A stretch of DNA of 64,000 nucleotides from a virus. Below the pieces are notes generated by a model. It was given only the letters and a program-made list of their open reading frames with translations. It had not been told where the DNA came from and did no database searches. Positions 2,947 to 62,136 of the stretch are shown in pieces. The stretch covers positions 39,999 through 103,998 of the IMG/VR virus record IMGVR_UViG_3300035039_000082; one strand, given 5' to 3'. Position 1 is the first letter of the stretch. Each line of letters starts with the position of its first letter. Position numbers and translations under genes: made by a program.

Positions 2947-3707
2947 CTAATAATTTAGGAATGCCTGATTTTGAAGCGACACTTCAGACAGGAAATTTGC
3001 CGCTTCAAAAAAAAGAATTAGAAAACTCTAATCAATCTGAAGATTTAGATTTTGAAATTGTAGAACCTGATTTTATTAAAGATATGGCAATTAATGGTAA
3101 TAATCAAAATTCTTTTGATGAAAATCCACCAAATATAAATGTACCAACACCATCAAATGAAAGTGAAATTAGTAAGAATCAATATTATAATTTAAATAAA
3201 ACTAAAAATTATCATATAATTGATATGTTTTGGTTAAATTATGAAGGTGATGAAACAATTAATGATAACCCAAATTTAGTTGAGTTTGTTATTATTTCAT
3301 ATAATTTAGATTTTGGTAATTTAAGAATTACTTTTCATCAAATTCCAGATAATGCAATTAATAATAATGTAGTATTTAATCAATCTTTAAAATTATTAGT
3401 TGCTGGAACAATTTATCCATCTTCAGCTTTTAAAGCTATTCATACAAAAAAACCATTTACTTGTATTGAACAATTAATTATTAGAAGCGGCGAAAAATGG
3501 GAAAAAGAAAGACCAATCACAGCTATTCAAAATACAAGTGAAGATGAAAATAATTTATCTTTTACTATTGCAATTACAAATGTTATAGATGATCAACAAT
3601 TTATTTATGAATTTAAAGATTGGCAAGCTAAAGCTTTATATTCTTGTTTAGAACATACTTATAAACAAGGATTATTAATGCGTGGTCAGGTAAGTAGTAT
3701 GAGCTAA
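2943..3707 (+). CDS. Hypothetical protein
   Basis: 254-aa ORF, ATGA overlap with polB stop. Confidence 0.7.
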   Translation: MTNNLGMPDFEATLQTGNLPLQKKELENSNQSEDLDFEIVEPDFIKDMAINGNNQNSFDENPPNINVPTPSNESEISKNQYYNLNKTKNYHIIDMFWLNYEGDETINDNPNLVEFVIISYNLDFGNLRITFHQIPDNAINNNVVFNQSLKLLVAGTIYPSSAFKAIHTKKPFTCIEQLIIRSGEKWEKERPITAIQNTSEDENNLSFTIAITNVIDDQQFIYEFKDWQAKALYSCLEHTYKQGLLMRGQVSSMS

Positions 3708-3711
3708 AATT

Positions 3712-3942
3712 ATGTTTAATTGTAATGAATTATTCAAAAAACAATTTAAAATTAATGAAAGTATTTATTTATTAAGAATTTATAAATACGATCATACTAA
3801 AAAACCATATATATCATTAGTTTGTAGATTTGGAAATACGTTCATTTCAAATAATTTAAATGCAATATTATATTTTATTAAAGATAGCGAATTTGATGAT
3901 AAATATATAATTGAACAAGCTATATTTGCATATATGTCATGA
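3712..3942 (+). CDS. Small protein, IEQAIFxY C-terminal family
   Basis: Ends IIEQAIFAYMS. Confidence 0.65.
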   Translation: MFNCNELFKKQFKINESIYLLRIYKYDHTKKPYISLVCRFGNTFISNNLNAILYFIKDSEFDDKYIIEQAIFAYMS

Positions 3943-4190
3943 TTCAGCATGTATTATTTCGTCATGATTTTGAAATTAATAATCAATGGTATGTATTTAG
4001 TATAGTTGAAATTAATAAATTTCGTGCGTATGGTCTTGGATCATTATGGAATAATAAATTTATAAATTTTAGGCTAAGAAAACCAGATGATCGTTCAGAT
4101 ATTCAATCTATATTAAAAATTGTTAAATCTTGTGATGGTAAAAATGATAGACAAATAATCGAACAAGCTATATTTGAATATTTAATATAG
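3939..4190 (+). CDS. Small protein, IEQAIFxY C-terminal family
   Basis: Ends IIEQAIFEYLI; ATGA overlap with previous ORF. Confidence 0.65.
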   Translation: MIQHVLFRHDFEINNQWYVFSIVEINKFRAYGLGSLWNNKFINFRLRKPDDRSDIQSILKIVKSCDGKNDRQIIEQAIFEYLI

Positions 4191-4223
4191 TTTGTTCGAT
4201 TATTATAATTTGGAGAAAATTAA

Positions 4224-4628
4224 ATGAGTTTAGATGAACTAAAAAATAAAATTTTAATAACTTCGACACCAAATAGTAAAAATGATTATGTTGATAATTA
4301 TATTGGTGATTTATCGATCACTCCAGATGGTAGTTTATCTGTTTATGATGGAAATTCATATATCGATGCTAATATTACTGCGTATAATTGGCAAAATGAT
4401 CTTATTGATATAAGTCAAATATACTTTCAAGATAGAATTAAAGATTTGTATATATTTTGTATATATAAACAAGATAATATTTTTAAAATAGGTTTATTTG
4501 AAATGCGTGATGATAATGACCAAATATTAAAAACAAATAATTTAAATGAAATAGTTGAAATTTTAAAAAGTGATCTTTCTGATGAAGAATTTCGTGAATA
4601 TGAAAGAAGAATCTTTGAGTATTTTTAA
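4224..4628 (+). CDS. Small protein, IEQAIFxY C-terminal family
   Basis: RBS ggag; ends EYERRIFEYF. Confidence 0.65.
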   Translation: MSLDELKNKILITSTPNSKNDYVDNYIGDLSITPDGSLSVYDGNSYIDANITAYNWQNDLIDISQIYFQDRIKDLYIFCIYKQDNIFKIGLFEMRDDNDQILKTNNLNEIVEILKSDLSDEEFREYERRIFEYF

Positions 4629-4630
4629 AA

Positions 4631-4927
4631 ATGAATTCTTTAAAAGTTTTAGCAATGAATTCTTTAAAAGAAAATTCTTTAAAAGTTTTAATAGTGAATT
4701 CTTTAAAAGAATATGAATTTCAAATAAATAATATTTTATTTGAATACAGTATAATAAACTTTCAAGATGATCTTACAGCTTGGTGTACAAGTAGCGATTC
4801 AGATATTAATATTATTATGCCATATTTTCAAACATCTAATATAATTATAAATTATTTAAAAGAATTAGGAATTGATGAAAAAGATTTAATTGAAATTGAA
4901 AAAATGACTTTTGAATATTTGACTTAA
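4631..4927 (+). CDS. Small protein, IEQAIFxY C-terminal family, with N-terminal NSLK repeats
   Basis: Ends EIEKMTFEYLT; repeated aattctttaaaag units near the start. Confidence 0.6.
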   Translation: MNSLKVLAMNSLKENSLKVLIVNSLKEYEFQINNILFEYSIINFQDDLTAWCTSSDSDINIIMPYFQTSNIIINYLKELGIDEKDLIEIEKMTFEYLT

Positions 4928-4943
4928 TAAGGATAAATATATT

Positions 4944-6897: not shown

Positions 6898-7548
6898 ATG
6901 TTAAAATTACCATTATTTAATACAGGTTATAATTTTAATACTGGTGAAGATTTAAATAAAAGAAATCGAGAGTATCGAGAACTGGAAGATATGTATCATA
7001 TTATTGAAAATGATTTTTATCCAGAAATAATAAGTGAAATTGATACCAGCAAAAATATTGTTATTATTACACCAAATGAATATAATTTTATTAGAAGAAA
7101 TGATTTTGGAAAATTAGATATATTAGCAACTACAGATATTGAATTATCATCTTGTCGTGCAATTAAAGACGGTATGATTAAAATTATTAATTTTATACCA
7201 AAGATTAAATTAATTGTACCAAAAGGAATTGAAGTAACTTTTACAAGCCCAGTAGAAAATAATTATACTGAAAAAATTTATTGTAAAAATGATATTGAAA
7301 CAAGAAAACATTATAAAAGTCGAATTAATGATTTTTTAATTTATACTCGGCTAGATTTAGATCTTTATATAGATTTACATCAAATGAAAAGATATAAACC
7401 TATATTAAAGATTGATTTTGGACAACCATTATTTAGTATTGGGTTTAATCCAATATATTATGTTGGTCATCCAAATGTTGAAAAAATTGAAGATATTTAT
7501 TGGTTAAAAAATGATAATTTAATGCAACAATGTGAAGATGTATTTTAA
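6898..7548 (+). CDS. Hypothetical protein
   Basis: 216-aa ORF, no motif recognised. Confidence 0.65.
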   Translation: MLKLPLFNTGYNFNTGEDLNKRNREYRELEDMYHIIENDFYPEIISEIDTSKNIVIITPNEYNFIRRNDFGKLDILATTDIELSSCRAIKDGMIKIINFIPKIKLIVPKGIEVTFTSPVENNYTEKIYCKNDIETRKHYKSRINDFLIYTRLDLDLYIDLHQMKRYKPILKIDFGQPLFSIGFNPIYYVGHPNVEKIEDIYWLKNDNLMQQCEDVF

Positions 7549-7578
7549 ATTTTGCCGCTTAAAAGGAGAATAAAATAA

Positions 7579-7734
7579 ATGGATATTCAAAAAGCATTAG
7601 AAAAAATTGGAGTGAAAAATAAAAGTAAAGAGAATCAAAAACGCAAATTAGAAGATCAAATTAAAAAGAAGAGAAGAGCAAAAAATAAAGTAGCTAAAAA
7701 ATCTCGTAAGCTAAATTATAAACGTAAGAAATAA
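7579..7734 (+). CDS. Very basic 51-aa protein (not in ORF track)
   Basis: RBS aaggag; MDIQKALEKIGVKNKSKENQKRKLEDQIKKKRRAKNKVAKKSRKLNYKRKK. Confidence 0.6.
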   Translation: MDIQKALEKIGVKNKSKENQKRKLEDQIKKKRRAKNKVAKKSRKLNYKRKK

Positions 7735-10133: not shown

Positions 10134-10583
10134 ATGTATAAAATTCCAAAAGATATTGAAATTGAAATGAATAAACTCTACCCAGATCTTGATATACAAC
10201 TTTTTATACATAATCTATTTACAAAAGTATTAGATAAAACATTTGCAGATGGAGCATGTACAATTAGAGAATTAGGGAAATTTATAACATATAAAACATA
10301 TTCAACAAAAGTTAATAATTATACTGTTAAATTAAAATTTAAAACAGCTGCTTCGATTCTTAATAGGATTAGACATGATGAATATTTATTAGAGAATGTA
10401 CCCGTTCAATCTAAATATTGTTTTACAGATTCACATAAACAAGCCTGTCAGAATCGAGCAGCTCAAAAAGCAGCAAATAAAGAAATAGCTTCTAAAGTAA
10501 AAGAAAGTGAACATAAGAAAACTAATGAGCGATTAGCAAAATATGAAATCTTAAAGGTATTAGAAGAAAAAGATAATACATGA
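10134..10583 (+). CDS. Divergent HU/IHF-like DNA-binding protein
   Basis: Helical N-terminus then GACTIRELGKF resembling the HU beta-arm start; RBS aaggag. Confidence 0.45.
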   Translation: MYKIPKDIEIEMNKLYPDLDIQLFIHNLFTKVLDKTFADGACTIRELGKFITYKTYSTKVNNYTVKLKFKTAASILNRIRHDEYLLENVPVQSKYCFTDSHKQACQNRAAQKAANKEIASKVKESEHKKTNERLAKYEILKVLEEKDNT

Positions 10584-11749
10584 GCAAACATATGAGTTGT
10601 AAAGATTTTCCTAAGTTAGGAGATTTTGTAACCAATCCAAAAGATTTTATAGGAGGTAATAAAACTCAAAAAGAAACACCAGATGGATTATTTAGTGAAC
10701 AAATATTTGGTCCAAAAAAGAATATGCAATGTTTATGTGGTAATCTAAATGGTGTTATCCATGAAAATGAAACGTGTTCTACTTGTGGAGTTTTATGCAC
10801 ATCAAATTCTATACGATCTACACAGTTTGGTAAAATTAAAACAATTTTTCCTTTTATTAAACCTAATAAACGAAAACTTATAATTAAAAGTTTAGGCAAA
10901 TTAACTAATAACATTGTAAATCCTAATCGTAATGATGTTAATTTAGATTCACAAAGATATTTAGCTTTTAAAGTAAATCGGTCTTCTATAAAAATAGTAG
11001 ATTCTTTAACACCAATCGATGATTATTTTATAATTCCTTTTAGAATTACAGGTATTTATAGTTTATATATTGCATTAAAATTTTGTGCAGATTTTTTAAA
11101 AATTTCAAAGGCTATTGAATTTTTTAAAAATAATTATATAACTGATATAATAAAAGTAATACCACCAAATCTTAGAATGTTTTCTATTGATAGTGATAAA
11201 GATGAAATTCGTACACCAGCTATAAATAAAGAATATACATCTCTATTAAATTCGAATGCATTTAATTTACCAATGTTAGAATATATAAAATTAGATGAAA
11301 AAGATTTTTTAGATCAAATTAAGATTAGTTTAAAAAATCATATTATTGATCAAGATATTTTTAATGTTCAACTTATTGAATATGATACAAAAGCGTCTGG
11401 ATATCAAAGAATTGTAAATAATATTTATGAAAATGTTTATTCTACATTATCTGGTAAACCAGGTTTAATTCGTAATAGTATATTAGGAAAAACAATAGAG
11501 TTTAGTGGCCGAACAGTAATTACTGTCGATCCTTCTTTAAAAGCATACCAAATTAAAGTTAGTAAAAAAATGTTAAAAAAATTATGGATGCCATATTTTT
11601 TACATTATTTAATTGAGTATGATGAGTTAGATGCCACTTATTGTTTTGATCGATATATGATGGACGAATTAGATAACGAAGAAGAATTAGATAAAAAATT
11701 TGATGAATTTCTTGAATGGTTTTATGATGATAACGAAGAAGGAAATTAA
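10580..11749 (+). CDS. rpoC: RNA polymerase beta' N-terminal subunit
   Basis: DGLFSEQIFGP, CLCG...CSTCGV zinc finger, KPGLIRNSILGKTIEFSGRTVI. Confidence 0.92.
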   Translation: MSKHMSCKDFPKLGDFVTNPKDFIGGNKTQKETPDGLFSEQIFGPKKNMQCLCGNLNGVIHENETCSTCGVLCTSNSIRSTQFGKIKTIFPFIKPNKRKLIIKSLGKLTNNIVNPNRNDVNLDSQRYLAFKVNRSSIKIVDSLTPIDDYFIIPFRITGIYSLYIALKFCADFLKISKAIEFFKNNYITDIIKVIPPNLRMFSIDSDKDEIRTPAINKEYTSLLNSNAFNLPMLEYIKLDEKDFLDQIKISLKNHIIDQDIFNVQLIEYDTKASGYQRIVNNIYENVYSTLSGKPGLIRNSILGKTIEFSGRTVITVDPSLKAYQIKVSKKMLKKLWMPYFLHYLIEYDELDATYCFDRYMMDELDNEEELDKKFDEFLEWFYDDNEEGN

Positions 11750-11752: not shown

Positions 11753-12226
11753 ATGACAGATTTTAATAATGTATCTTACGAAAATCCTTTATTATGTTCG
11801 AATTTTATATCTGAATTTTATATTCCTTATTTTAATAGTAATGACATTATGAGATATAACGAAAAAATTGAATATGATTTAGTATCTAATAAAGTTATAG
11901 CAAATTTTATTGGATACGAACAAGGTAATTTTGAAAAATTTATTAATAATATTAAAAAAGAAAATATTGAATTTTTTGGAATTTACCCATTAAAAAACCC
12001 ATCAAGTATAGAATTTGATAAATATTATATTTCATGTGTTTTTGGTAGTTTAGAACAATATTATTCACGTTTTGATTTATCTAAAAACGATGTATTAAGA
12101 GGCGAAATAGAATTAAAATTCTATGATATAAAAATTATACAAAAAAATGAAAAATTTGATAATATTCGATATTTAGATCAAGTTCATAAAATGATATATG
12201 AAAAAATTCTATTTAAAAAACTTTAA
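11753..12226 (+). CDS. Hypothetical protein
   Basis: 157-aa ORF. Confidence 0.6.
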   Translation: MTDFNNVSYENPLLCSNFISEFYIPYFNSNDIMRYNEKIEYDLVSNKVIANFIGYEQGNFEKFINNIKKENIEFFGIYPLKNPSSIEFDKYYISCVFGSLEQYYSRFDLSKNDVLRGEIELKFYDIKIIQKNEKFDNIRYLDQVHKMIYEKILFKKL

Positions 12227-12248
12227 TTGATGAGGAAAACTAAAAAAT

Positions 12249-12725
12249 ATGCCAGAAAATACAATACTTGAATTTAAAGGAGAATATAAATTTTTATCGA
12301 ATTTTTATTATTCTCCATTCATATTTAATAATATAAGATTTCCAACTAATGAACATTTCTTTCAAGTGAATAAAACCATAAATAAAGATGAATTTCAATA
12401 TATATTAGATTCTGAAACTCCAGCAATTGCTAAAAGAAGAGGTAAAGAAATTAATATTGATCCAAATTGGGATAATATTAAAAATAGAGTGATGTATATT
12501 GGTGTATATAATAAGTTCACTCAAAATAATAAATTAAAATATATGCTAATTAATACAGAAAATGCTGAATTAATTGAAGGGAATTATTGGAACGACAGAT
12601 ATTGGGGAATTTGTTTGAAGACTAATGAAGGCGAAAATCATTTAGGTAAAATTTTAATGAGTGTAAGACGATTTTTAGATTATGAATCTTTTGTAACATC
12701 TCGTTTAAATACTATTATAAATTAA
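12249..12725 (+). CDS. NADAR (YbiA-like) family protein
   Basis: FLSNFY, NEHFFQ, AKRRGK, KFTQN, LIEGNYWNDRYWG, GENHLGKILM. Confidence 0.92.
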   Translation: MPENTILEFKGEYKFLSNFYYSPFIFNNIRFPTNEHFFQVNKTINKDEFQYILDSETPAIAKRRGKEINIDPNWDNIKNRVMYIGVYNKFTQNNKLKYMLINTENAELIEGNYWNDRYWGICLKTNEGENHLGKILMSVRRFLDYESFVTSRLNTIIN

Positions 12726-12735
12726 GGAGAAATTA

Positions 12736-12966
12736 ATGGATCCAATGTTTAAAGACCTTAATCAAACTATTAATAATTTTGAAAATGAACTTAAATTTCG
12801 AAAAGAAGAAAACTCTTTAGAAAAACAATTAGCTGAAACTAAATTTAGAACTAAACAAGAGACAATTAGTTATTTTGAAAAACATTTAGATTATATTAAA
12901 CAAAAATTTAATCTTCTTTTAGTTGAACAACCAGATATAAAAAAAGAAAATTTAGAAGAGGAGTAA
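12736..12966 (+). CDS. Small hypothetical protein
   Basis: RBS aaggag, 76 aa. Confidence 0.6.
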   Translation: MDPMFKDLNQTINNFENELKFRKEENSLEKQLAETKFRTKQETISYFEKHLDYIKQKFNLLLVEQPDIKKENLEEE

Positions 12967-12967: not shown

Positions 12968-13942
12968 TTGACACCGGAAGCTAAAAGATTAAATAGATTA
13001 TGTTATTTAAATCGTCAACCAAGTCTTTGGCGCCATAGTGTTCCATGTGTAGAGATTATTCCCGGAGATGATAATGATCTTTCTATAGGATTGTCTCCAT
13101 TAATTTTGGAGCCTATGAATGCTGATCATGATGGTGATGAATTAGCGTTATATGTTATTAATGATCAACAAGCATTAAAAGAAATGGAAGAAAAAGCTTT
13201 TTTAAAGAATTCTTTCTTTTATGATTCTGATGGCTCTATGCTAACGACAGTTAGACATGAAGCATTATATGCTTGTTATATTTTAACAGAAACAACAGAA
13301 CCAAATTTTGAAAATTTTGAAATTATTAAAATATCTGAGTTAAAAGATTTGCCTGAAGATTTTGATTATTGGAATAATTATTTAAAATGTCCAATTAAAT
13401 TTAAAGATAAATATTATACTTATGGTGTTTGTTTGTTAAATAAATGGATGAAATTAGAAGATATTTTAATTAATCAACCAATTACAAAGAAACAAACGGA
13501 TGATATTAGTCGAATTATCTATAAAATCCATAAAGACAAATTTCATGATGTTATTACAGAATTAAATAAAAAATTATATTTCTTTATATCTACTACTGAT
13601 TTTAATCCAACAATTGATGTTGATGAAATGGTTAATATGGTAGATGATAATACTGAAAAATTATTTAAAAAACTACCTGATAGTAATGTTGAATTAGGTT
13701 ATTATATTAATAATGCTTTGGTTGATCGCTGTATTCAAAATATGAATCATAAATCTAGTCTTTATAGATTATATAGATCTGGAAGTCGTATGAGTAAACA
13801 ACAATTAGCTAGAACATGTATTAATGTTGGATATGTTGCTGATGCAAAAAATGTAATTATCCAAGATCCAATTTGTACTAATTTAATGATTGGGCTAGAT
13901 GAGAATGATTACTTTAAGTCGTCACCAGGAGCCAGGAAGGGT
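12968..13942 (+). CDS. rpoC: RNA polymerase beta' C-terminal (catalytic) subunit, exon 1
   Basis: LNRQPSL, catalytic loop NADHDGD, ends SPGARKG; TTG start with RBS gaggag. Confidence 0.92.
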
Positions 13943-14528
13943 AAATAATAATGCTCTTCTAAAACTTATCTATATGCTAGAAACTCCTTAGAGCTTTTAA
14001 TACTTTATAACAGGTTTATAAAGTCAAAATTTAAAAGATTGGACAATTAGCAGATAAGATTGTTTATAAACAAAAATCTCAGAGACTATACGATAAGGTG
14101 AAAAAGAATGATTCATCCTCAATATATACTTGGTATATTTGATTCTAAATTAGGTAAATTTGAAATTAAAAAATATAATACTTGTTATAAGTTTAGAATA
14201 TTGATTTATAATTCAGATATTAAAGTATTATATAAAGTTAAAAATCGATTTAAAATTGGTAAAGTTAAATTCATAGAAGATAAACAATTATTTGTATTAG
14301 TTATAGATAAACAATTAGATATATTGATTAACTTTTTTGAAAAAAATAAATTACTAACATATCAAGGAGTATTATTTAAAAAGTTTGCGTATTTATATAA
14401 AAAATTAATAATAAAAGATTCTAATATTTCTGAAAAGGAATTAAGAAGAATAATTAATAAATTACATTATTTTTTATAGTTTTCACAAGATATAGTCCAT
14501 TTGTTATAGAAATATAACATGTTTAATG
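13943..14528 (+). mobile_element. Group I intron 2
   Basis: P1 aagggt/gctctt, P tatgctagaaa, Q aattagcag, R cagagacta, S agatatagtcc, ends taatG; splicing gives GARKG-IIDKADSTPQSGYLER. Confidence 0.92.
14108..14479 (+). CDS. Intron-encoded single-motif LAGLIDADG-like endonuclease, possibly degenerate
   Basis: QYILGIFDSKLGKF motif; ORF lies between R and S. Confidence 0.65.
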   Translation: MIHPQYILGIFDSKLGKFEIKKYNTCYKFRILIYNSDIKVLYKVKNRFKIGKVKFIEDKQLFVLVIDKQLDILINFFEKNKLLTYQGVLFKKFAYLYKKLIIKDSNISEKELRRIINKLHYFL

Positions 14529-16091: not shown

Positions 16092-16286
16092 ATGTCATCA
16101 AGACTTGCTTACGTTCAATATTCTGAAAAAATTTCATATTCGACATATCAAGAATTAGACGAAAAAATTAATAAACTAAAAGCGTCTTCTGAATTTCCAA
16201 TTAATATTGAACCAACAACTCCTAATTATACAGATACTAATAATTGGTGTTTAGTTAATTATTGGAAAGAAGAGATCTTACATTGA
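16092..16286 (+). CDS. Small hypothetical protein
   Basis: 64-aa ORF in operon context. Confidence 0.5.
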   Translation: MSSRLAYVQYSEKISYSTYQELDEKINKLKASSEFPINIEPTTPNYTDTNNWCLVNYWKEEILH

Positions 16287-16320
16287 ATTTTGCCGCTTAC
16301 AGAAAAGGAGAAAATAACTA

Positions 16321-16749
16321 ATGACTAAAAAGAAAACAGTTAAAGTACCACCACCTTTTGTTAAAAATATTAAAACTGATATATCAAAAATCATTTCTAT
16401 TGTTAAAGGTATGGGTTTTAAATTTACAAAACACGAAGAAGATAATTTAATAGTTATTCAATGTGAACGCGAACTTCAAATAGTTATTGAAGATAATAAA
16501 ATATTTTTAACTATGGATTCTTTATTGTGTCCTAAAAAAGTATTTGATTTATCATTATCATTATTTCAAAATAATATTGATATATATAGTACTGCTATTG
16601 TTCATCAATTGCCAAATGGTGAACTTTTAACTGGAGAAGAAGCTTGTGATGGTAGACATTCTTTATTTGATTTTATAGATAGTGTTTTGACAATGACTGA
16701 AAAAGATGATTTATTAAATTCAATATCTGAAAAAACAACAATTCATTAG
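16321..16749 (+). CDS. Hypothetical protein
   Basis: RBS aaggag; GCCGCTT motif upstream. Confidence 0.65.
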   Translation: MTKKKTVKVPPPFVKNIKTDISKIISIVKGMGFKFTKHEEDNLIVIQCERELQIVIEDNKIFLTMDSLLCPKKVFDLSLSLFQNNIDIYSTAIVHQLPNGELLTGEEACDGRHSLFDFIDSVLTMTEKDDLLNSISEKTTIH

Positions 16750-16787
16750 ATTTAATTTTTTGCCGCTTACAAAAAAGGTTTTAAAAA

Positions 16788-17216
16788 ATGAAAACAATAA
16801 AAGTTTATACTGATGGAGCTTGTTCAGGAAATCCTGGAAAGGCAGGTATTGGAATTGTTCTTATTTACCAAGATAATACAATTGAAAAGATATCTCAATA
16901 CATAGGAGATAATCAAACAAATAATATTGCAGAATTAACAGCAATATTAGTAGCTTTGCAAACTATTAAAGATAAAACATGTAAAGTAATTATACATTCT
17001 GATAGTTTATATTCAATTAATGTTTTAACTGGAAAATCAAATGCTAATAAAAATAAAGATTTAATTAAAATTATTAAATCCCAATTAGCTAAATTTAAAT
17101 CTTCAGTTGAATTTGTAAAAGTACCTGCACATTCAAATGATAAATATAATAATATAGCAGATAATTTAGCTGTAACTGCAATTAAAACTTCAAAAAATAT
17201 AAATGATTATATTTAA
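16788..17216 (+). CDS. rnhA: Ribonuclease HI
   Basis: YTDGACSGNPG, TNNIAEL, HSDS, VPAHS..YNNIAD. Confidence 0.95.
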   Translation: MKTIKVYTDGACSGNPGKAGIGIVLIYQDNTIEKISQYIGDNQTNNIAELTAILVALQTIKDKTCKVIIHSDSLYSINVLTGKSNANKNKDLIKIIKSQLAKFKSSVEFVKVPAHSNDKYNNIADNLAVTAIKTSKNINDYI

Positions 17217-19061: not shown

Positions 19062-19117
19062 TTAAGGAAGCTGCAAAATTTTTAATAATAATCTAAATTT
19101 TGCCGCTTACAAAAGAA

Positions 19118-20391: not shown

Positions 20392-21489
20392 ATGTCTATA
20401 ACAAGTGTTAATTTATCTGCTTTACCATTTATGGGATCTTGTGATTCTACAAGAGCTCAAATGGCATCTAAACAAATGTCACAAGCTTTAACTCATCCAA
20501 ATTGCGAAATTCCATATGTTATTTCAAATGAATATAGGAATTTAGTAAATTCGAGTTTTTTGGGTATTTGTATTGCTAAAGATGATGGTGAAGTGATATT
20601 TAACGCAAGTGAAATTTTAATTATTTATTATAATAATTTAAAAAAATTACAAGTTTTTCAAGTTCCTATTATTAAAAAAACATCTAGTATGTTTGCGTCT
20701 AGTTTACGATTTATATTACCTCAAGGTTTAAAATTTAAAAAAAATGATATTATATTTAGTTATGATGGTTTTAAAAATGGAATACCATCATTTGGGTATA
20801 ATGTAATGACAGCTTATATGGCTGGGTGGGGATTTAATCATGAAGATTCACTTATAATCAGTGAATCTTTTGCAAGAAAAGCTAAAGTAAAAATTAGTGA
20901 AAAAGTATATATTCCTATTTATGAACATACTATTTTAATGCCTATTTATAAAAATATAGATGATTCTTTAATTTATTTTCCAAACATTGGTCAAAAAATT
21001 AAAGGGACAACTGTATGTTCTACAGTGAGACCAAACGCGACAAATTATGCCGAGTCCAATAAAAGTATTAAAAATAAAATGATGTTATTTTTTAAGAATG
21101 CAACAATTACAGACCTTTTAAATCTTAACAATCAAAATACGAATAATATTAAAGTTGAAGAAGTAAAAACAAAAATTGAAAATGGAACAATTACAGGATT
21201 GAATATTCATAGACTTCAAAAAGGAGTTAATTTAATTGATCCAAGATTCCAAGATTGTTTAAATAAATTAGTTATAAATTATTGTGAACAGAATATTTTT
21301 TCAACTTTTAATGATTTGCAATGTAAATTTAATCAAGATTATGCAAAGCAAATTATTAAACAAAATATTATGTATTCAGCTGATCAGAAATCTTCTAATA
21401 AAAGTATGATGAAAAATGCTATTTATTTAATTGAATTAGAAATTACTAGAGAAGATTCGAGTCAGATCGGCGACAAATTCTGTAATCGT
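20392..21489 (+). CDS. rpoB: RNA polymerase beta C-terminal subunit, exon 1
   Basis: LPFMGSCDSTRAQMASKQMSQA, GYNVMTAYM..GFNHEDSLIISE, ends IGDKFCNR. Confidence 0.92.
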
Positions 21490-40232: not shown

Positions 40233-40317
40233 TTGTAAAAAAATAAATTCTTATATTAACATACATAATAATTGTATATTAATATAAGAATTTTATTTTT
40301 TAATTTTTTAAAGAATC

Positions 40318-40563
40318 TTGCCGCTTCCAAAAATAAGGAATATAAGTATTAATACTTTATTCGAATCAAAACAAGATAAAACTCCACTTACATCAGAAGA
40401 ATATAAACAAGTAAAAGAACGATTTGGGAAAGTTGGATGTTCTTTTGCAAAGAATAAAGATGGAAAATATTACTGTTATACACATCGAGCTAGATCTAAG
40501 TATTATAATTCTATTGATAAGATCCCTAAAGATAGAGTTAAATTTATTGAATCAACAGGATAA
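40318..40563 (+). CDS. Small hypothetical protein (TTG start is part of the GCCGCTT motif; true start likely 40342 or 40348)
   Basis: ISINTLFE resembles the N-terminal motif family; CSF...YCYTHRARS. Confidence 0.55.
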   Translation: MPLPKIRNISINTLFESKQDKTPLTSEEYKQVKERFGKVGCSFAKNKDGKYYCYTHRARSKYYNSIDKIPKDRVKFIESTG

Positions 40564-41592: not shown

Positions 41593-41613
41593 AAAGAAAT
41601 AATCTTTTAGAAG

Positions 41614-41650
41614 ATATTTGGAAGCGGTAAAATCTGTCGCTTCCAAATAT
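41614..41650. repeat. Inverted pair of GCCGCTT-type motifs forming a hairpin
   Basis: atatttggaagcg-gtaaaatctgt-cgcttccaaatat. Confidence 0.7.
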
Positions 41651-41754
41651 TATTTATATATAATTTAATATTCGAAAATTTTATATATAAATAATATTAA
41701 TAGTTCCCTTCTTATTTTGTTTTAATAGCAATTTTTTAAAAAAAGGAGAAAGAA

Positions 41755-41982: not shown

Positions 41983-42015
41983 TTATCCTGATAGTCGTTT
42001 TGACTATCAGGATAA
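41983..42015 (+). terminator. 14-bp hairpin
   Basis: ttatcctgatagtc/gactatcaggataa. Confidence 0.6.
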
Positions 42016-42066
42016 TCTATTTTTCGCCGCTTTCCAAAAATCTAAATTACATAAAAGGAGAAACTT

Positions 42067-43440: not shown

Positions 43441-43542
43441 TGATATTAATAATATTTATATATAAAATTTTTGAATATTAAAAAAAAGATTCCCCTCCCT
43501 ATCAAGATACTTTTGAAGTATTTGATAAGGAGGGAAATGAGT

Positions 43543-43863: not shown

Positions 43864-43961
43864 AATTTTTCTCCTTTTTTTGATTTTTATAGGATTAATA
43901 TATTTATATAATTTATATATTCAAATTAAGAATATGAAAAATTCTGCCGTTTATAAAAATA

Positions 43962-44561
43962 TCAAAATTCTAATAATTTAACATTATCATTTAAATATTT
44001 TGTATCTTTTAAACTATTAATAAAATCTTGAATTGTATAATATGGTTTCCCTTTATTATTTTTATCCATTCTTGGATAGGTATAAACATCAGTTTTTAGT
44101 TTATATTTTTCAATAATATAAATCAATAATTGGCTTTTGCCTTTATTCATTCCACCACTCATACAATCATAATATTCACTTCCGATAAGCATTCCAAGCA
44201 TTTCTTCAATTGAAGTTATTTCACTATTGTTTTCTTTTTGGGTATCATTAATTTTTTTAAACCATTTAAATTTATCAATTAATTGATAATAGCTATCTAA
44301 TAATAAAGTGATTTCATCTACTTTTTCGTCAAATTTTGAACCTTCAAATTTAAAATTTAAATTCTCAATTTTAAATACTGGCCTAACTAATACAATTCTT
44401 GGCTCATTAAATCCATTATTAACTATTGGAAATTCTTCAATTGGAACATTATCTTTATTTAAATAATAAATATATTCATCATTATTTGACATTGGAGACA
44501 TTTCAATAATATAACGAAATGCATTTTCTACTTTTTCATTTTTTAACTCGGGTAAATTCAT
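43962..44561 (-). CDS. Hypothetical protein
   Basis: RBS aggag; promoter motif ~44605-44640. Confidence 0.65.
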   Translation of the reverse strand: MNLPELKNEKVENAFRYIIEMSPMSNNDEYIYYLNKDNVPIEEFPIVNNGFNEPRIVLVRPVFKIENLNFKFEGSKFDEKVDEITLLLDSYYQLIDKFKWFKKINDTQKENNSEITSIEEMLGMLIGSEYYDCMSGGMNKGKSQLLIYIIEKYKLKTDVYTYPRMDKNNKGKPYYTIQDFINSLKDTKYLNDNVKLLEF

Positions 44562-44712
44562 AGTTATTCTCCTGTAAAAAAAGATTATTAAAAAACTTAC
44601 ATTAATATTATAATTTATATATTAATTTTTAGAATATAATATTAATTTAAATTTTTTAATAATAATTTAAATTCTGCCGCTTTCAAAAAAAATATTAAGG
44701 AGAACATATAAA

Positions 44713-44994
44713 ATGTATTCAATATCTGCAACATTATTTAAGCCATTGATTTCAGTAAATAAAATAAATCAAGTTCCAGTTGGAAAACATAACCATATTC
44801 CAGATGATGAATTTGATCCTAAACAATTAGAGATGGGTATACAAGTAGAATTTGAACATACAGACGATTTTTCGATTGCAAAATTCATTGCTAAAGATCA
44901 TCTTGCGGAGATCCCTGACTATTATATTCGTTTAAAAAAGATGGAAGATGAGGCTAAAATCGAATTATATAATAAATTAGGAAATAAAGAATAA
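44713..44994 (+). CDS. DUF5661-like protein
   Basis: FDPKQLEMGIQVEFEHT...IAKDHLAEIPDYY.RL. Confidence 0.75.
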   Translation: MYSISATLFKPLISVNKINQVPVGKHNHIPDDEFDPKQLEMGIQVEFEHTDDFSIAKFIAKDHLAEIPDYYIRLKKMEDEAKIELYNKLGNKE

Positions 44995-48176: not shown

Positions 48177-48332
48177 TTTTTCTCCTTAAAAATTTAAAAA
48201 GTTTATATTAGTATTATAATTTATATATTAAATTTTAGAATATTAATTTAAGTTTTTTAAATAATTTTTTAAGCGGTAAAAAATAGATTCTTTTGTTGAA
48301 TTTTGCCGCTTTCAAAAATAGGAATAAATAAT

Positions 48333-49295: not shown

Positions 49296-49387
49296 AGAAT
49301 CTAAATTTTGCCGCTTCCAAAAAAAAATAAAATAGGATAAGATAATAAAAATTATTTTATTATCTTATCCTATTTATAATTTCATTT

Positions 49388-51942: not shown

Positions 51943-52109
51943 TATTTTCCTTTCTAAAAATATAAAATTTAAAAAAGTCTTATATTAATATAATTTATAT
52001 ATTAAATTTAAGAATCTTAAAAAAGAATCTACTTTTTCGCCGCTTCCAAAAAAAATAAAATAGGTGATAAGATATATAAATCTTATCATATCACCTATAG
52101 GTTTTAATA

Positions 52110-52870: not shown

Positions 52871-52943
52871 GATTTTTATTCTCCTTATTTAGATAGTTAA
52901 AAATTCTTTAATAATCTATTTTTCGCCGCTTCCAAAAATAATT

Positions 52944-53282
52944 TTATTTCCTTTCTAATGGATCACCACAAAACTCACAACAATCACATGATGGATCATG
53001 AATCTTATGATACATACAAAATCCAAATGGACTTTTAGGACAGTCCCATTCTGTTGAGATATAATACCATTCAATTTCTTCATCAATTTCAGGATATTCT
53101 TTTCCATCTCTATCTCTATACATTAATTTATATCCTATTCTATCTAATTCTTCTTTAGCTATTTCATAAATATATTCACTTAATACACTAATTTGATTAT
53201 AGACTTGTTCAATTTTCTTTTTAATTTCTTCTTGTTCATATTTAACAATTTCTATTTCATTAAGTATTTCATTATTTCCCAT
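52944..53282 (-). CDS. Protein with C-terminal Cys-rich zinc-binding motif
   Basis: WDCPKSPFGFCMY...CDCCEFCGDPLERK. Confidence 0.65.
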   Translation of the reverse strand: MGNNEILNEIEIVKYEQEEIKKKIEQVYNQISVLSEYIYEIAKEELDRIGYKLMYRDRDGKEYPEIDEEIEWYYISTEWDCPKSPFGFCMYHKIHDPSCDCCEFCGDPLERK

Positions 53283-53718: not shown

Positions 53719-54195
53719 TTACATAGTTAAGAATTCATATAATTCATATACTTTTGGAAATCTTTTAATATCCACATATTGAATTGCATTTGGATCTTTT
53801 CTAATAGCTTCAAGACAGAGTTCTTCTGTTTGATTTTTAACATATTGTAATGATGATCCATCTTTTTTAACAGCTTCTAAACATATCTCTTCTGTTTGAT
53901 TTTTAACAAATTGTAATGATGATCCATCTTTTTTAACAGCTTCAAAACATATCTCTTCTGTTTGATTTTTAACAAATTTTAATGCATTTTCATTTTCTTT
54001 TACAGCTTCCATACAAATTTGTTCTGTTTTATTTTTAACATATTGTAATGCCCACCCATTTTGTCTTATAGCATCAATACATATCTCTTCTGTTTGATTT
54101 TTAACATATTGTATTAACAAGCCACTTTCTTTAACTTTTCTTAAACAATAATCTTTATCATACCATTTTAAAAGTTTTTCTTTCGTATAATACAT
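53719..54195 (-). CDS. DUF4116 repeat protein with ELYEFL tail
   Basis: Tandem LQYVKNQTEEICLEAVK repeats; ends KVYELYEFLTM. Confidence 0.8.
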   Translation of the reverse strand: MYYTKEKLLKWYDKDYCLRKVKESGLLIQYVKNQTEEICIDAIRQNGWALQYVKNKTEQICMEAVKENENALKFVKNQTEEICFEAVKKDGSSLQFVKNQTEEICLEAVKKDGSSLQYVKNQTEELCLEAIRKDPNAIQYVDIKRFPKVYELYEFLTM

Positions 54196-54682
54196 ATTTT
54201 TATTCCTTTCTAAAAGATAAAAATTTTTATTCTATATTTATTATTTATATATAAATCTGTTGAATCTTAAATAAGTTAAAACTCTTTTAATTTTCTAAAA
54301 TTTTCAACAATTTTAACTTATAATATAGACGTGTAAATTCTTATGAATATTAATTTAATTCTATTTTTGACTCTTTAAAATAATTTTAATTTCTGAATTT
54401 TTATTTTTTAGGACGGGATAAAAACAAGATTCTTTTTAGATTAATTAGATCTTTTTGGTAAGCGGCAGATTTTAAAATTTTGCTACTTTAGAAAATTTAA
54501 AAATCTTTAAATGATAACTTTAACCTTGGTGGGAAATTGCTCACCAAACTGAGTGAAAATTTAGATTTATCTTTAAAAAACTCTATTTAATTTTAAATAA
54601 TTTTATTTTTATTCTTAAAAACTCTTTAATAATCTATTTTTCGCCGCTTCCAAAATAAAATAAATTAATAAAAAGGTGTTTT

Positions 54683-54880
54683 ATGATTTCTACAAATAAC
54701 ATATTCCTTGAAGCATTAAATCCTACTATTAAAAAATCTTTTATTCAATCTGGTAAATTATTAGGTGCTGGAGCTGGTTTAGGGATTTCTAGTGTGGGGA
54801 AAACATTAGATTATTCAGGTAAAAAATTATATGATAAATTATCAGATAAGAATCAAAAAGATAATCAAAATAAAAAATAA
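54683..54880 (+). CDS. Small Gly-rich protein with MISxxxIF N-terminus
   Basis: MISTNNIF; LLGAGAGLG. Confidence 0.55.
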   Translation: MISTNNIFLEALNPTIKKSFIQSGKLLGAGAGLGISSVGKTLDYSGKKLYDKLSDKNQKDNQNKK

Positions 54881-57408: not shown

Positions 57409-57731
57409 AATGTTAAAAACATATATAATTCATATAATTCTTGATAATATTTATGAGTTAAATCAATACATTGAATTATTTCTGGCTTTTCATATATTAA
57501 ATTAGATAAAATATTATAATCTAATTTATGTTGATGTTCATCTAATACTTCATTTTTTAATGTGGGATTACTATAATTAACATATGATGGATTATTTATA
57601 TAATATATACCTTCATTATATGATAGTATAATATAAATTATTTTATTAATACAATTTATATTATTATAATAATAATCGCGTAATAAATTATCTAATTTAT
57701 TTATAGGATCTAAATCATATAATTTTATCAT
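57405..57731 (-). CDS. ELYEFL-tail family protein
   Basis: Ends YYQELYELYMFLTL. Confidence 0.7.
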   Translation of the reverse strand: MIKLYDLDPINKLDNLLRDYYYNNINCINKIIYIILSYNEGIYYINNPSYVNYSNPTLKNEVLDEHQHKLDYNILSNLIYEKPEIIQCIDLTHKYYQELYELYMFLTL

Positions 57732-58183
57732 AATGTTAGAAATTTATATAATTCTTTAACTTGTTTTTGTAATTCATAATCATTACTTGGTATAGTTATA
57801 TATTTATAATAATTAATATTTCTTATTAATAACCATTCACATAATTCATAAGATGGATATTTAATATATCTTAGTAACTTATTATGAGCAGTTATATAAG
57901 TTATATATAACCAATTCGATATAAATAATTTAACAAATTCTTTATTATCGATATTATAATTATATAATTTTGCAATTAAGTTAATAATTTTATAATCATA
58001 TCCTCGATATAAAGTATCAATTATATCAAATTGTTTTTGAATCGGCAAATTCTTGAATGAAGACTTATTATTAACAATAATATTTTTTGAATATAAAAAT
58101 TCATCTGTATTATAATTTGTTTTATTTAATATATATTCATTAAGTATTTTATAGTCAACACCATTTATCACATATTTATTCAT
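57728..58183 (-). CDS. ELYEFL-tail family protein
   Basis: Ends QKQVKELYKFLTL. Confidence 0.7.
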   Translation of the reverse strand: MNKYVINGVDYKILNEYILNKTNYNTDEFLYSKNIIVNNKSSFKNLPIQKQFDIIDTLYRGYDYKIINLIAKLYNYNIDNKEFVKLFISNWLYITYITAHNKLLRYIKYPSYELCEWLLIRNINYYKYITIPSNDYELQKQVKELYKFLTL

Positions 58184-58460
58184 TTTATATCCTTAGTGTT
58201 TTGAAAATTATATATAATCTCGCCGCTTCCAAAATAAATAATCTTTAGCCATATTTTATTCTCCTTTTTTATATTCTTTTAATATTATAATTTATATATG
58301 TAATCTTATAATATTAAAAATTTATAAAAAATAAAAAGAGAGTAATTATGATTTTTAAATGGATAACAAATATTGGATTGGGTATAGGATTGTTTATTAA
58401 TTATATTTTAAATATCTTTAAAAATAAAAATTAGTGAAATAATATAAATTCACTAATTTA

Positions 58461-59712: not shown

Positions 59713-59772
59713 ATGAAACCTTATTTTTCATAAGTTTGAAATTTTATAAATTCTGCCGCTTCCAAAATAATA

Positions 59773-60114
59773 TTAAATAGTAAGAAATTCATATAACTCT
59801 TTTAATTGTTGATAATTTTTATGATTCTTATTAATTTTGTTAATTATACTTGGATATCTATATAATAATCTTGACAATATATTATAATCTAAATATTCTT
59901 GATAATTATTTAATAAATGATTTTTAATTTTAATTTCACTATACTTTGTATAAGTAGTATTATCTGGAATAGCTTGATAACTATTATTAGAAAATATATA
60001 ATTGGTAACTTTTTTAATATATTCAAGATTATTTTTATCAGAATTATAATCTCTTAATAAAGATTCAAATACACCTCTTGTGATATATTCATATTTTATT
60101 CTATTTTTATTCAT
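59773..60114 (-). CDS. ELYEFL-tail family protein
   Basis: Ends YQQLKELYEFLTI. Confidence 0.7.
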   Translation of the reverse strand: MNKNRIKYEYITRGVFESLLRDYNSDKNNLEYIKKVTNYIFSNNSYQAIPDNTTYTKYSEIKIKNHLLNNYQEYLDYNILSRLLYRYPSIINKINKNHKNYQQLKELYEFLTI

Positions 60115-60398
60115 ATTGTCAAAAACTCATATAACTCTTTTAATTTTTTATAATCTTTATGATCTTCTTTAATACATTTTATTATTTCAGGATTATAATA
60201 TAATAATCTTGATAATATATCATAATTTAATAAACTTTGATGTTTTAATAATAATGTATTTTTAATAATAATTTCATGATTATCAAAAACTTCAGCAGGA
60301 GCAGGTATAAATGTATAATCATTAAAACTTAATATATAATTAAATAGGGTATCAATATTATCTTTTTTATATTTAGTTATATTATTAATTATATTCAT
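60111..60398 (-). CDS. ELYEFL-tail family protein
   Basis: Ends YKKLKELYEFLTI. Confidence 0.7.
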   Translation of the reverse strand: MNIINNITKYKKDNIDTLFNYILSFNDYTFIPAPAEVFDNHEIIIKNTLLLKHQSLLNYDILSRLLYYNPEIIKCIKEDHKDYKKLKELYEFLTI

Positions 60399-60841
60399 AC
60401 TGTCAAAAACTCATATAATTCTTTTAATTCTTTTTTATGTGGATGATCTTCTTTAATAATTATATATTTATAATATTTAGGATTTAAATATATTAACCAT
60501 TGGTACATATTAAAAGATAATGATTGATTAGAAGTTATTAAAAATGTTTTCATTAATATATGATTTTTCTTCTTTTGAAATAATAATTGCAATATATCTT
60601 CTGGAATAAAATCATCATATAATATATTTAATAATTCAATAAACATTTGATCATATATTCTAATATCATTTAATATCATAATTATATTTTTCTGTATATC
60701 ATAATTATATTCTTGAAAATTTTGTCCATATTGAGTATTATTTTGAATGTAATTTAAAAATTTTTGTTTTGCAAATTGAACGTGCATTCGATAATTCTCT
60801 GTAATAAAATTTTGCATAGCATCCCATTGTGTTTTATTCAT
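60395..60841 (-). CDS. ELYEFL-tail family protein
   Basis: Ends HKKELKELYEFLTV; promoter motif ~60875-60905. Confidence 0.7.
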   Translation of the reverse strand: MNKTQWDAMQNFITENYRMHVQFAKQKFLNYIQNNTQYGQNFQEYNYDIQKNIIMILNDIRIYDQMFIELLNILYDDFIPEDILQLLFQKKKNHILMKTFLITSNQSLSFNMYQWLIYLNPKYYKYIIIKEDHPHKKELKELYEFLTV

Positions 60842-60922
60842 ATTATTTCCTTTTTAAATTATAAAAGATTATTTATATTATTTATATATTAAATTTGACA
60901 ATATTAAATAAAAATAGGATAT

Positions 60923-61126
60923 TTGATCATGTCTATTTATTGTAAAGATTGTTCTGAATTAATAACGAAAATAAATAAGTTTGGTGTAACTAGTTATTGT
61001 AAAAAATTTAATGAATATTTAAGAGAAGTCCCAATGGATAATAATATTATTAAATATCCAATTAAATGTTTAGAATGTATTAATCAAGAAAATAAAAAAA
61101 GGTTAAATTATGATTTCAGTAAATAA
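60923..61126 (+). CDS. Small Cys-rich protein
   Basis: CKDC...C...KCLEC. Confidence 0.55.
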   Translation: MIMSIYCKDCSELITKINKFGVTSYCKKFNEYLREVPMDNNIIKYPIKCLECINQENKKRLNYDFSK

Positions 61127-61463
61127 ATTATTTGAATTTACAGAAGAGACTCAAGAAAGAAAATCAGTTCAAAGTTTTTTAAATAAAACAAATCCAGAAC
61201 CAAATTTAAATGACAATTATAAATCTAAATTTAATGAAATAACTATTTTATGTAATAATGCGACGGCATATGAATCGTTAGTTCCTCTTTTAAAATATAT
61301 TGCAAGAAATGGAAATCCTGGTCATTCTTTTGATATAATTGTTGATCCAGATAGTTCAGAAAATAAAAGATCTTTTGAATTTGATGGTGATGGAGCACAT
61401 TTTATCAAACAAATAAAATTAAATTCTGTTGATATTAATAAAATTATTAAAGACGAAAAATAA
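61110..61463 (+). CDS. Hypothetical protein with MISxxxLF N-terminus
   Basis: MISVNKLFE; GNPGHSFDIIVDP. Confidence 0.6.
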   Translation: MISVNKLFEFTEETQERKSVQSFLNKTNPEPNLNDNYKSKFNEITILCNNATAYESLVPLLKYIARNGNPGHSFDIIVDPDSSENKRSFEFDGDGAHFIKQIKLNSVDINKIIKDEK

Positions 61464-61485
61464 TTATTCTTTTGGAGTTTATATT

Positions 61486-61902
61486 ATGGACCAAAATAGA
61501 TTATTAAGAACAATTGAAACATATAGACCATATAATAAATTTCCATATATGTGTTCTTCTGGTGAATCTATTATTGGTATTGGAAGACCTTTGTGTAATG
61601 GTGTTCGATATAGAGAAGCAAGATTTATGCTTAAAAATGATATAGATGAGTGTCGTTGGGATCTTCAAAAAATATTTATAGATCAATTTGATATTTTACC
61701 CGATTATATTCAAGAAGTTTTGTTATATATGAGATTTCATTTAGGTTTAGATAAATTTCAAGAATTTGAAAAATTTATTAATGCTGTTAAAGGATGGGAT
61801 TTTGTTTATACTTCTAATGAATTATTAAATTCTAAATGGGCAAAACAAAATTCAGAAATAGTTAAAAAATTAGCTAATATAATTTGTTATAATTGGAAAT
61901 AA
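61486..61902 (+). CDS. T4-type lysozyme-like protein, catalytic Glu apparently lost
   Basis: PY.CSSG..IIGIGR.L, EA.FML.ND, ELLNSKWAKQ; ETYRP in place of the HEG motif. Confidence 0.7.
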   Translation: MDQNRLLRTIETYRPYNKFPYMCSSGESIIGIGRPLCNGVRYREARFMLKNDIDECRWDLQKIFIDQFDILPDYIQEVLLYMRFHLGLDKFQEFEKFINAVKGWDFVYTSNELLNSKWAKQNSEIVKKLANIICYNWK

Positions 61903-62087
61903 CTATGACATACTATGATTATAGAGATCAATGCGGCAATTGGAATTATTCAGATAATAAGATTAAATTAAAAGAGCAAGAAAAAGAAGCAATATTAAAT
62001 TTAAAAAAAGAATTATTAGATAAAAGTGAACCACTTTCATCTCATTTTTCTAAGACAGTTGATAAACATTTTTGGGAATTATTTTAA
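61893..62087 (+). CDS. Small hypothetical protein
   Basis: 64-aa ORF. Confidence 0.5.
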   Translation: MEITMTYYDYRDQCGNWNYSDNKIKLKEQEKEAILNLKKELLDKSEPLSSHFSKTVDKHFWELF

Positions 62088-62136
62088 TTAAATAATTTGC
62101 CGCTTTCAAAAAATTAAATAGGAATTATTATATATT

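Follow-up and report, generated by a model that had tools for sequence, protein, structure and literature searches.

A GC-cored, strand-biased motif repeated in an AT-rich jumbo-phage fragment: a candidate second promoter class

Why should a GC-rich word recur, mainly on one strand, in a genome that is very rich in A and T? This question is raised by a 64-kb stretch of DNA (the window; bases 39999 to 103998 of the 109,263-bp IMG/VR record IMGVR_UViG_3300035039_000082) from an uncultured, very AT-rich phage, in which the G+C content is 17 to 31% and the word GCCGCTT is found again and again. CheckV puts the completeness of the contig at 52%, i.e., it holds about half of a jumbo-phage genome, and the structural module and the physical ends lie outside it. 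The contig encodes the beta and beta' subunits of a multisubunit RNA polymerase (RNAP). An earlier note on the window had taken the word either for a late promoter of a phage RNAP, also used for antisense shutoff of early arrays, or for a polar DNA signal. Positions given below are those of the window unless they are called genome positions.

Enrichment, position and structure of the motif

GCCGCTT was present at every one of the 22 coordinates in the earlier note, 18 on the plus and 4 on the minus strand, whereas dinucleotide-preserving shuffles of the window yielded a mean of 0.52 copies and a maximum of 2. The word is the core of a GC-cored consensus of about 25 nt, aATCTAaATTTTGCCGCTTCCAAAA, which we named class B. 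With a position weight matrix (PWM) built from the sites and a threshold of >22 bits, a scan of the whole contig returned 43 sites, and the strand bias that had been noticed by eye was borne out, with 35 sites on the plus and 8 on the minus strand (binomial p = 4e-5). The list of copies had to be revised in part: the minus-strand word at 54466 is a true copy, but those at 3485, 36152 and 47119 lie within genes and lack the rest of the extended motif, and variants at 9350 and 26803 (GCCGCTC), at 48277 on the minus strand (ACCGCTT) and at 43946 (GCCGTTT) had been missed.

Genes were called simply as the longest open reading frames (ORFs), and starts that ran into the motif via TTG codons were corrected by hand. 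Thirty-two of the 43 sites are intergenic, although noncoding DNA makes up only 13.6% of the sequence (p = 2.5e-19), and the intergenic sites are again biased, with 26 on the plus and 6 on the minus strand (p = 5e-4). A gene on the same strand is the target of 22 of 31 intergenic sites, mostly at 16 to 58 nt from its start and with a Shine-Dalgarno sequence in between; the roughly ten copies that had been placed before plus-strand starts in the earlier note indeed lie 16 to 41 nt from them. The motif is one contiguous block and can sit as near as 4 nt to the ribosome-binding site. Besides the ribosome-binding site and the AT-rich motif described below as class A, class B is the only strongly over-represented word, and its sites tend to lie where conserved blocks meet variable small-gene cassettes.

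The single copies are unstructured. Their mean folding z score was +0.31, the core was not consistently paired, and a search of the single copies for a degenerate partner or a hidden hairpin found neither; the only copies that fold are six pairs and a hairpin at 41613-41651. Since the single copies have neither structure nor partner, we take them to be read by a protein as linear sequence. An Rfam scan gave an RNA family at none of the class B sites. In the back-to-back pairs, the plus copy retains its A-run, whereas the A-run of the minus copy is degraded.

Copies inside genes, all of them in sense orientation, were given little weight because most encode Ala-Ala as GCC-GCT and are thus partly explained by coding. 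In the coding regions of the contig, the Ala-Ala codon pairs GCC-GCT and GCG-GCA, which are the two strands of the class B core, occur 10 and 9 times, respectively, compared to 2.7 expected for each. In-gene copies are found at 2985..3011 on the plus strand and, of the same kind, at 9350, 26803, 34136, 34589 and 38159; it is uncertain whether these copies, which mostly encode x-Ala-Ala-x, are functional sites.

An AT-rich companion motif and the candidate role of class B

A separate AT-rich motif of about 35 nt, TTTAATATTC-N8-ATATATAAAT (in its fuller form tTTTTttAATATTC-N8-ATATATAAAT-aATAtaA), lies upstream of the minus-strand arrays. This class A motif turns with the gene strand and is an internal control for promoter behavior in this genome: of 33 intergenic copies, 31 aim at the next gene on the same strand and 2 precede small-RNA regions. 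In the window it is found at 25613, 25852, 39497, 39779 and 41683 and, on the minus strand, at 43463, 43920, 44622, 48228, 52002, 54252, 58299 and 60889, and there are about 20 more copies across the contig. Those at genome positions 49024 and 60325 precede the RNAP beta' and beta genes, and others lie ahead of the primase and topoisomerase genes, small-gene arrays and noncoding RNAs. The early promoters of jumbo phages that encode RNAPs are AT-rich, highly conserved and about 10 nt long (review, PMC7598289), the consensus in AR9 being AAATATATATTAT-N6-G (PMC5312081). Because it matches this type, class A is probably the early promoter class, and the RNAP genes are probably early, judging from the class A promoter ahead of them.

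An RNAP that is made early needs another promoter class, and therefore class B, as the only other strongly over-represented word that is not a ribosome-binding site, is a candidate. Indeed, where a phage has an RNAP of its own, motifs of this kind are most commonly explained as promoters. We tentatively favor the reading that class B is a second phage-specific promoter class and that it may be read by the phage's own multisubunit RNAP. The polymerase would start at class B and fire towards the CCAAAA side, giving short A-rich leaders just before the ribosome-binding site. Class A would act early and drive the small-gene arrays, the noncoding RNAs, the replication genes and the RNAP subunit genes of the fragment, and the RNAP, once made, would turn to class B to transcribe middle and late units and to restart within early operons. 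The non-early genes would all be on the plus strand, and hence nearly all class B copies as well; transcripts from the copies in the minus-strand early arrays would be antisense or would run head-on into early promoters, which would help to shut the arrays off.

This reading is carried above all by the junctions at which a plus-strand gene would otherwise lack a conserved element. At three of the four divergent junctions, class B (44676, 48305 and 54643) is the only conserved element before the plus-strand gene, and the minus-strand gene has a class A site. The copy at 44662..44688 (plus) lies 37 nt before ORF 44713-44994, and that at 54629..54655 (plus) lies 40 nt before ORF 54683-54880. The junction between them has a back-to-back pair on both strands (48265..48317), consisting of the minus copy at 48277 and the plus copy at 48305, the latter 28 nt before the ATG at 48333 of an M48 peptidase-like gene. 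Class B also directly follows strong terminators on the same strand, with a gene next, at genome position 5906 and window positions 40320 and 42026, and in all three cases the T-rich half of the motif doubles as the T-tract of the terminator. The copy at 40306..40332 (plus) is directly behind an AT-rich terminator hairpin, and for that at 42012..42038 (plus), 41 nt before ORF 42067-42690, the hairpin has 15 bp and spans 41983-42015. Class A and class B share a gap on the same strand in about three cases only (3446/3498 in genome coordinates and, on the minus strand, 88226/88275 and 94250/94464).

Towards the right end of the fragment, the tail-like gene and the endolysin region have class B but not class A; the copy at 62085..62111 (plus) lies 38 nt before the tail-protein-like ORF 62137-62961, which is followed by a gene for a protein with an fn3 domain. 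RNase H and other non-structural genes also carry class B, and a "late" timing is weakly supported. Of the late promoter proposed before, what stands is the position and orientation of the copies, the divergent junctions, the sites behind terminators and the near exclusion of class A from the same gaps. Enrichment, positions, orientation statistics, the unstructured single copies and the covariation of the core with the lineage (see below) were all observed directly; initiation at class B, the polymerase responsible, its timing and the antisense effect are our inferences.

The antisense copies are an obstacle to the promoter reading, which needs them to be functional antisense or head-on promoters. 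Of the 32 intergenic copies, ten are directed at the 3' end of a gene, and this excess in comparison with class A, as measured by orientation relative to genes, is significant (Fisher p = 0.011). Five of the ten are plus-strand copies in minus-strand arrays, as the earlier note had described, and a bidirectional terminator hairpin lies in front of two of them. The best-scoring copy of all (43 bits; 49296..49322, plus), at a convergent junction, faces the bidirectional terminator hairpin at 49331-49374 and has no sense gene. That at 52025..52051 (plus) is antisense to its array and lies between a minus-strand terminator hairpin and the minus-strand class A site at 52002. Two more are antisense within minus-strand operons, at 52911..52937 (plus; 19 nt from the stop of 52944-53282) and at 59741..59767 (plus; 18 nt from the stop of 59773-60114). 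The fifth, at 58208..58234 (plus), sits in a leader between gene 57728-58183 and the minus-strand class A site at 58299, to which it is head-on. A decayed sixth copy is at 43946: this weak site (43932..43958, plus) faces the stop of the minus-strand gene 43962-44561 and is back-to-back with the minus-strand class A site at 43920. At genome position 108230, not far from the right end of the contig, a minus-strand single also faces a 3' end, and the remainder are minus members of back-to-back pairs. In the context of minus-strand genes, single copies are on the plus strand in 5 cases and on the minus strand in 2.

Known systems offer partial parallels. The promoter of the phiKZ non-virion RNAP (nvRNAP) is the short T-3ATG+1 (TATG), and the known middle and late promoters of jumbo phages are not predictable bioinformatically (PMC7598289). 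Late promoters of AR9 read AACA-N6-TA/G; 13 of them are internal to ORFs, and 7 of the 118 promoters, mostly late ones, drive antisense RNA (PMC5312081). With this precedent for antisense RNA from late promoters, the antisense copies of class B are compatible with a promoter, although about a third of the intergenic copies are antisense here, a far larger share than in AR9. As in jumbo-phage nvRNAP systems, the split beta and beta' genes lie behind a separate AT-rich early class, and class B is found before non-early genes, within early operons and occasionally antisense. In contrast to the late promoters of phiKZ and AR9, to which it has no sequence similarity, class B is about 25 nt long, has a GC-rich core and can be found by word statistics, and its orientation is flipped or palindromic in relatives; nor does its GC core fit the early, virion-RNAP type, to which class A corresponds instead. 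Sigma-dependent promoters differ as well, in having two boxes, -35 and -10, about 17 nt apart where class B is contiguous.

A closer formal likeness is to the class II and III promoters of the T7 group, which are 23 bp long, are read by a single-subunit RNAP and point in one direction along the genome. Class B is likewise long, nearly invariant and lineage specific, occurs about once per 2.5 kb both between and inside genes, runs one way along the genome and, if it is a promoter, would give short leaders. However, the polymerase here is multisubunit, and T7 is not known to have opposite-strand gene arrays or palindromic variants. No single-subunit RNAP was detected in the contig by a PF00940 search, which was run without a working control, and Sigma70_r2 had no match in the contig, which represents about 52% of the genome.

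Class B in related phages and competing explanations

Relatives were located via the beta' protein; many of those with 50 to 75% identity lie on short contigs. An exact peptide-word search for close relatives returned none, an exact-motif scan of viral contigs returned only one multicopy relative, and the same scan of genome contigs gave nothing but single chance matches. The contig IMGVR_UViG_3300035102_000070, which is 93 to 97% identical, keeps 14 of 14 comparable class B sites, with one nearer to the consensus; the GCCGTTT core at 43946 reads full GCCGCTT in it. The closest distinct relative, G005, is syntenic, with a beta' that is 65% identical, and carries AAATCTGCCGAGGCCAAAAA, which matches class B at 18 of 23 positions. 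In G001, which is 95% complete, WTCTTGCCG occurs 90 times, compared to 3 times for a control word, and TTTTGCCGYTGTCA is found in L154 and L155, either paired or sense oriented. The core is the same in all copies of a given genome but is specific to the lineage (CTT here, AGG in G005, YTGTCA in L154/L155 and GAT in G001). In T7, T3 and SP6, promoter and polymerase coevolve in a lineage-specific manner, and the core common to all copies shows the pattern of such a coevolution. For class A, the core ATATATAAAT is identical in G005, and G001, G002 and G004 use TTTCATATAGAAATA.

The same relatives also supply arguments against a promoter. The G005 element matches class B only as the reverse complement, and 7 of its 8 copies aim against the genes, of which only one direction is represented there. 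Three of these copies are in gaps equivalent to sense or paired sites here, namely, after the ligase gene, near the clamp loader gene and after the orthologue of genome 46896-47546. At the first two, this phage has a pair and G005 has the opposite member, which suggests that the pair is ancestral and that the two lineages have lost opposite members; decaying pairs are in fact seen at 19074/19102 here and at 20069 and 10606 in G005, where several copies also fold into hairpins. The single copies of L156, L157, L173 and L164 are reversed as well and abut the ribosome-binding site of the next gene. The gaps of G001 contain tight palindromes, ATCGGCAAGATCT-N-AGATCTTGCCGAT, between codirectional genes (22 with both arms exact and a few with a degenerate arm), and palindromic forms are also found in L161-165. 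The palindrome is absent from the one divergent and the one convergent junction of G001 and from the orthologous gaps of 15 to 18 nt in G002. Neither G002, which is complete, nor G004 has any class B despite the same RNAP family; both have a class A-type promoter and ordinary unique terminator hairpins. Moreover, for a promoter that has to melt, it is unusual to have a GC-rich core adjoining the presumed start site. The orientation in G005, the palindromes and the uniform DNA orientation of the copies here are thus not explained by a promoter that serves gene expression alone, and given the flipped or palindromic forms in related phages, a promoter is the most probable role of class B rather than an established one.

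The main alternative, which we regard as doubtful, is that class B is not a promoter but the docking site of a phage-encoded DNA-binding boundary factor (an insulator, a regulated roadblock or an operator). Such a factor would bind as a monomer to the asymmetric site here and as a dimer to the two half-sites of the G001 type, and would block or modulate crossing polymerases either way. It would account for a gene-relative orientation that is not conserved, and for half-sites in the G001 palindromes that vary independently and without compensation, as protein half-sites do. The site exactly fills the gap from the stop codon to the next ribosome-binding site in every lineage, the copy at 58222 has the placement of an operator, with an early promoter on one side of its leader and the operon on the other, and the tendency towards cassette borders would also fit. 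However, an action independent of orientation fails on the 26:6 strand bias of the intergenic copies and on the 7:1 ratio in G005. No recognizable promoter would remain for the plus-strand genes behind terminators and at the three divergent junctions, a block before the tail-like and lysis genes would silence them, and no candidate for the factor was found: the conserved helix-turn-helix (HTH) protein of the family keeps its recognition helix across different class B cores and in phages without class B. Direction along the DNA is the starting point of two other readings. In the first, unlikely in our estimate, class B is a polar promoter or roadblock, and one direction holds for the entire DNA molecule irrespective of single genes: the RNAP would load at about 40 sites, always run one way and express plus-strand genes where there are any. 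Regions with genes in the opposite direction (the early arrays here and, in G005, the entire replication block) could then undergo late antisense or head-on silencing, or transcription could drive DNA handling as in a T7-like internalization; sister lineages are proposed to have turned the element into bidirectional palindromes. Quite unlikely, too, is a polar signal on the level of DNA, such as a T5-type nick site, a signal for replication, recombination or packaging, or a set of mechanical unidirectional promoters for a T7-style entry. The single copies do share one DNA direction over plus-strand regions and minus-strand arrays, a point in which the polar signal of the earlier note captured something real, since it is the DNA, and not the genes, along which the copies here are uniformly oriented. 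The copies of G005 that run against its genes and the ancestral pairs that decayed differently, with opposite copies kept at the ligase and clamp-loader junctions, can be cited in its favor, as can the NAD-dependent ligase encoded here; T5 also encodes an NAD-dependent ligase. Yet the simple Chi- or KOPS-type word that had been suggested is excluded, because the short core is neither enriched nor strand biased outside the 25-nt motif (CCGCT, 8 on the plus versus 11 on the minus strand; CCGCTT, 2 versus 8). The known Chi words are AGCGG in Bacillus subtilis and GAAGCGG in Staphylococcus aureus, and the reverse complement of the class B core, GGAAGCGGC, holds both; like Chi, the motif is polar along the DNA, but unlike Chi, it has conserved flanks and intergenic sites, and the cores of the relatives (CCTCGGC and TATCGGC) are without Chi words. 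The G001 palindromes have no polarity, and nicking them would lead to staggered double-strand breaks; the strong preference for gaps, the fixed relation to start codons and the lack of a replication-type skew beyond the gene-strand skew also speak against a polar signal.

Very unlikely is a repeat that was spread by recombination or transposition, with a palindromic hairpin as the ancestral form and the single copies as its surviving, largely functionless halves; PeSL cassettes, REP elements and mitochondrial GC clusters would be comparable. The palindromic forms, the visibly decaying pairs, the position at cassette borders and the complete absence from G002 and G004, including the orthologous tight junctions of the former, would agree with such a history, but some 30 single copies keep the 25-nt consensus including flanks that cannot pair, which indicates selection on the linear sequence, and a strong orientation bias is not expected from random insertion. 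There is no presence/absence polymorphism at the 14 sites comparable with the 93-to-97%-identical relative, and recent mobility is rejected on this ground. The models for such a repeat fit in part only. PeSL (promoter-early stem-loop) regulatory cassettes of T4-type phages, reportedly described by Arbiol et al. in 2010, combine a host-type promoter with a stem-loop and are always gene oriented. As with PeSL, repeated intergenic motifs flank variable small-gene cassettes here and are plausibly recombination points; however, class B singles have no stem-loop, and class A with its terminators fits PeSL better. The G001 element resembles REP/BIME in being a conserved palindrome found only between codirectional genes, whereas most copies in the present phage are single, asymmetric and unstructured and occur at divergent junctions as well. 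Least probable of all, and by our estimate highly improbable, is a sequence-specific terminator or another signal on the level of RNA (processing, stability or translation). It could draw on the reversed motifs 6 to 20 nt past stop codons in G005 and in the minus-strand arrays here, on the hairpins formed by several G005 copies and by all pairs, and on five G001 palindromes followed by a T-run that take the position upstream of class A promoters where unique terminator hairpins sit. But a flip alters the RNA sequence, and one reader of RNA cannot serve both orientations; the single copies have no stable stem-loop as intrinsic terminators do, and in plus-strand regions the motif faces the wrong way for sense transcripts. 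The copies at 52925, 59755 and 58222 are in minus-strand operons or a leader with no promoter downstream and would silence three to eight genes, and in G005 a reversed copy lies between a class A promoter and a gene that, as judged by eye, resembles a tRNA gene. A constitutive terminator is ruled out by the reversed copies within minus-strand operons and by the one in the leader of a 3-kb operon, for which there is no second promoter.

Should class B be an nvRNAP promoter after all, this lineage would supply a long, information-rich recognition element, unlike the short and unpredictable middle and late ones described so far (PMC7598289), whose early counterparts are readily spotted. Promoter recognition by a sigma-less multisubunit RNAP would become directly testable, and the natural differences in the core (CTT, AGG, GAT and YTGTCA) could be used to map specificity determinants. 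If the element instead marks boundaries, acts as a roadblock or gives a genome-polar signal, it would represent an undescribed way of organizing a giant phage genome. The flip at equivalent junctions between relatives is a concrete puzzle under either reading.

A search of the literature turned up nothing relevant on palindromic motifs in the intergenic DNA of jumbo phages. Two further observations on the relatives are added here. QueE-like and queuine tRNA-ribosyltransferase-like proteins are encoded in G005 (L143:654-3122), which hints at a 7-deazaguanine modification of its DNA that would matter for the reading of a GC-core motif. A relative with 36% identity has, in one gap (L176:2142-2295), five tandem 38-nt repeats, each with TCGCCGTTAG, which may belong to the same element family, in the form of an array.

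Further sites and gene content

The remaining plus-strand copies in gaps mostly lie before genes. The core of the copy at 7540..7566 is 25 nt before ORF 7579-7734 and 6 nt past the stop of ORF 6898-7548, and the matching gap in G005 has a reversed element. Copies at 16278..16304 and 16748..16774 lie 29 nt before ORF 16321-16749 and 26 nt before the RNase H gene (16788-17216), respectively. That at 19088..19114 (41 bits) follows the NAD-ligase gene, has a weak reversed partner at 19074 and is 16 nt before the ATG at 19118; G005 retains the reversed copy alone at this junction. The one true minus-strand single in the window, at 54454..54480, lies 271 nt upstream of the minus-strand gene 53719-54195, with the class A site at 54252 intervening.

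The hairpin at 41613..41651 (plus), which the earlier note had described as an inverted pair, is real. Two degenerate class B copies (ACCGCTT and GTCGCTT) make it up, and with the T-run that comes next, it looks like an intrinsic terminator; class A lies beyond, at 41683. The leader that contains the copy at 58222 (58184-58300, minus strand) has a 14-codon ORF, MAKDYLFWKRRDYI, with its own ribosome-binding site ahead of the first gene of the 3-kb operon, and the reversed class B motif is written through this ORF.

The RNAP subunits have at best about 25% identity to proteins in the phage collection, and both genes are split. The beta' gene is at 10580-11749 and 12968-13948, with intervening ORFs at 11753-12966, and the beta gene is at 20392-21492 and about 21833-22699. 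The latter contains two group I introns (21480-21742 and 21892-22137; Rfam RF00028, 77 and 115 bits). The fragment also encodes an NAD-ligase, RNase H, a primase, topoisomerase II, a clamp loader, a helicase and a DNA polymerase, and, near its right end, the tail-like protein and the endolysin.

Two kinds of HTH protein were considered as class B binders and rejected. One is a paralogous tandem-HTH family (genome 3546-4139, 11057-11824 and 38960-39658; window 22996-23778) with HNH-endonuclease-type PHROG matches. Because of these matches and because one member adjoins the introns, the family probably consists of homing endonucleases; the ORF at genome 3546-4139, the one considered, belongs to this family and does not track class B. 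The other is encoded at genome 31386-32057 (L002:11386-12057), has a repetitive N terminus rich in Pro, Ala and Gln followed by one HTH, and is kept in all five related genomes. Its recognition helix, ITKxQVNRxL, is nearly invariant; as a binder it was dismissed since the helix is identical despite different class B cores and is also present in phages without class B, but the protein may have a core function in the lineage, in transcription or DNA binding. Finally, a stretch of about 100 nt at 22777-22877 is 85 to 88% identical to DNA of Yersinia phage phiR1-37 and of Lactococcus AM phages.

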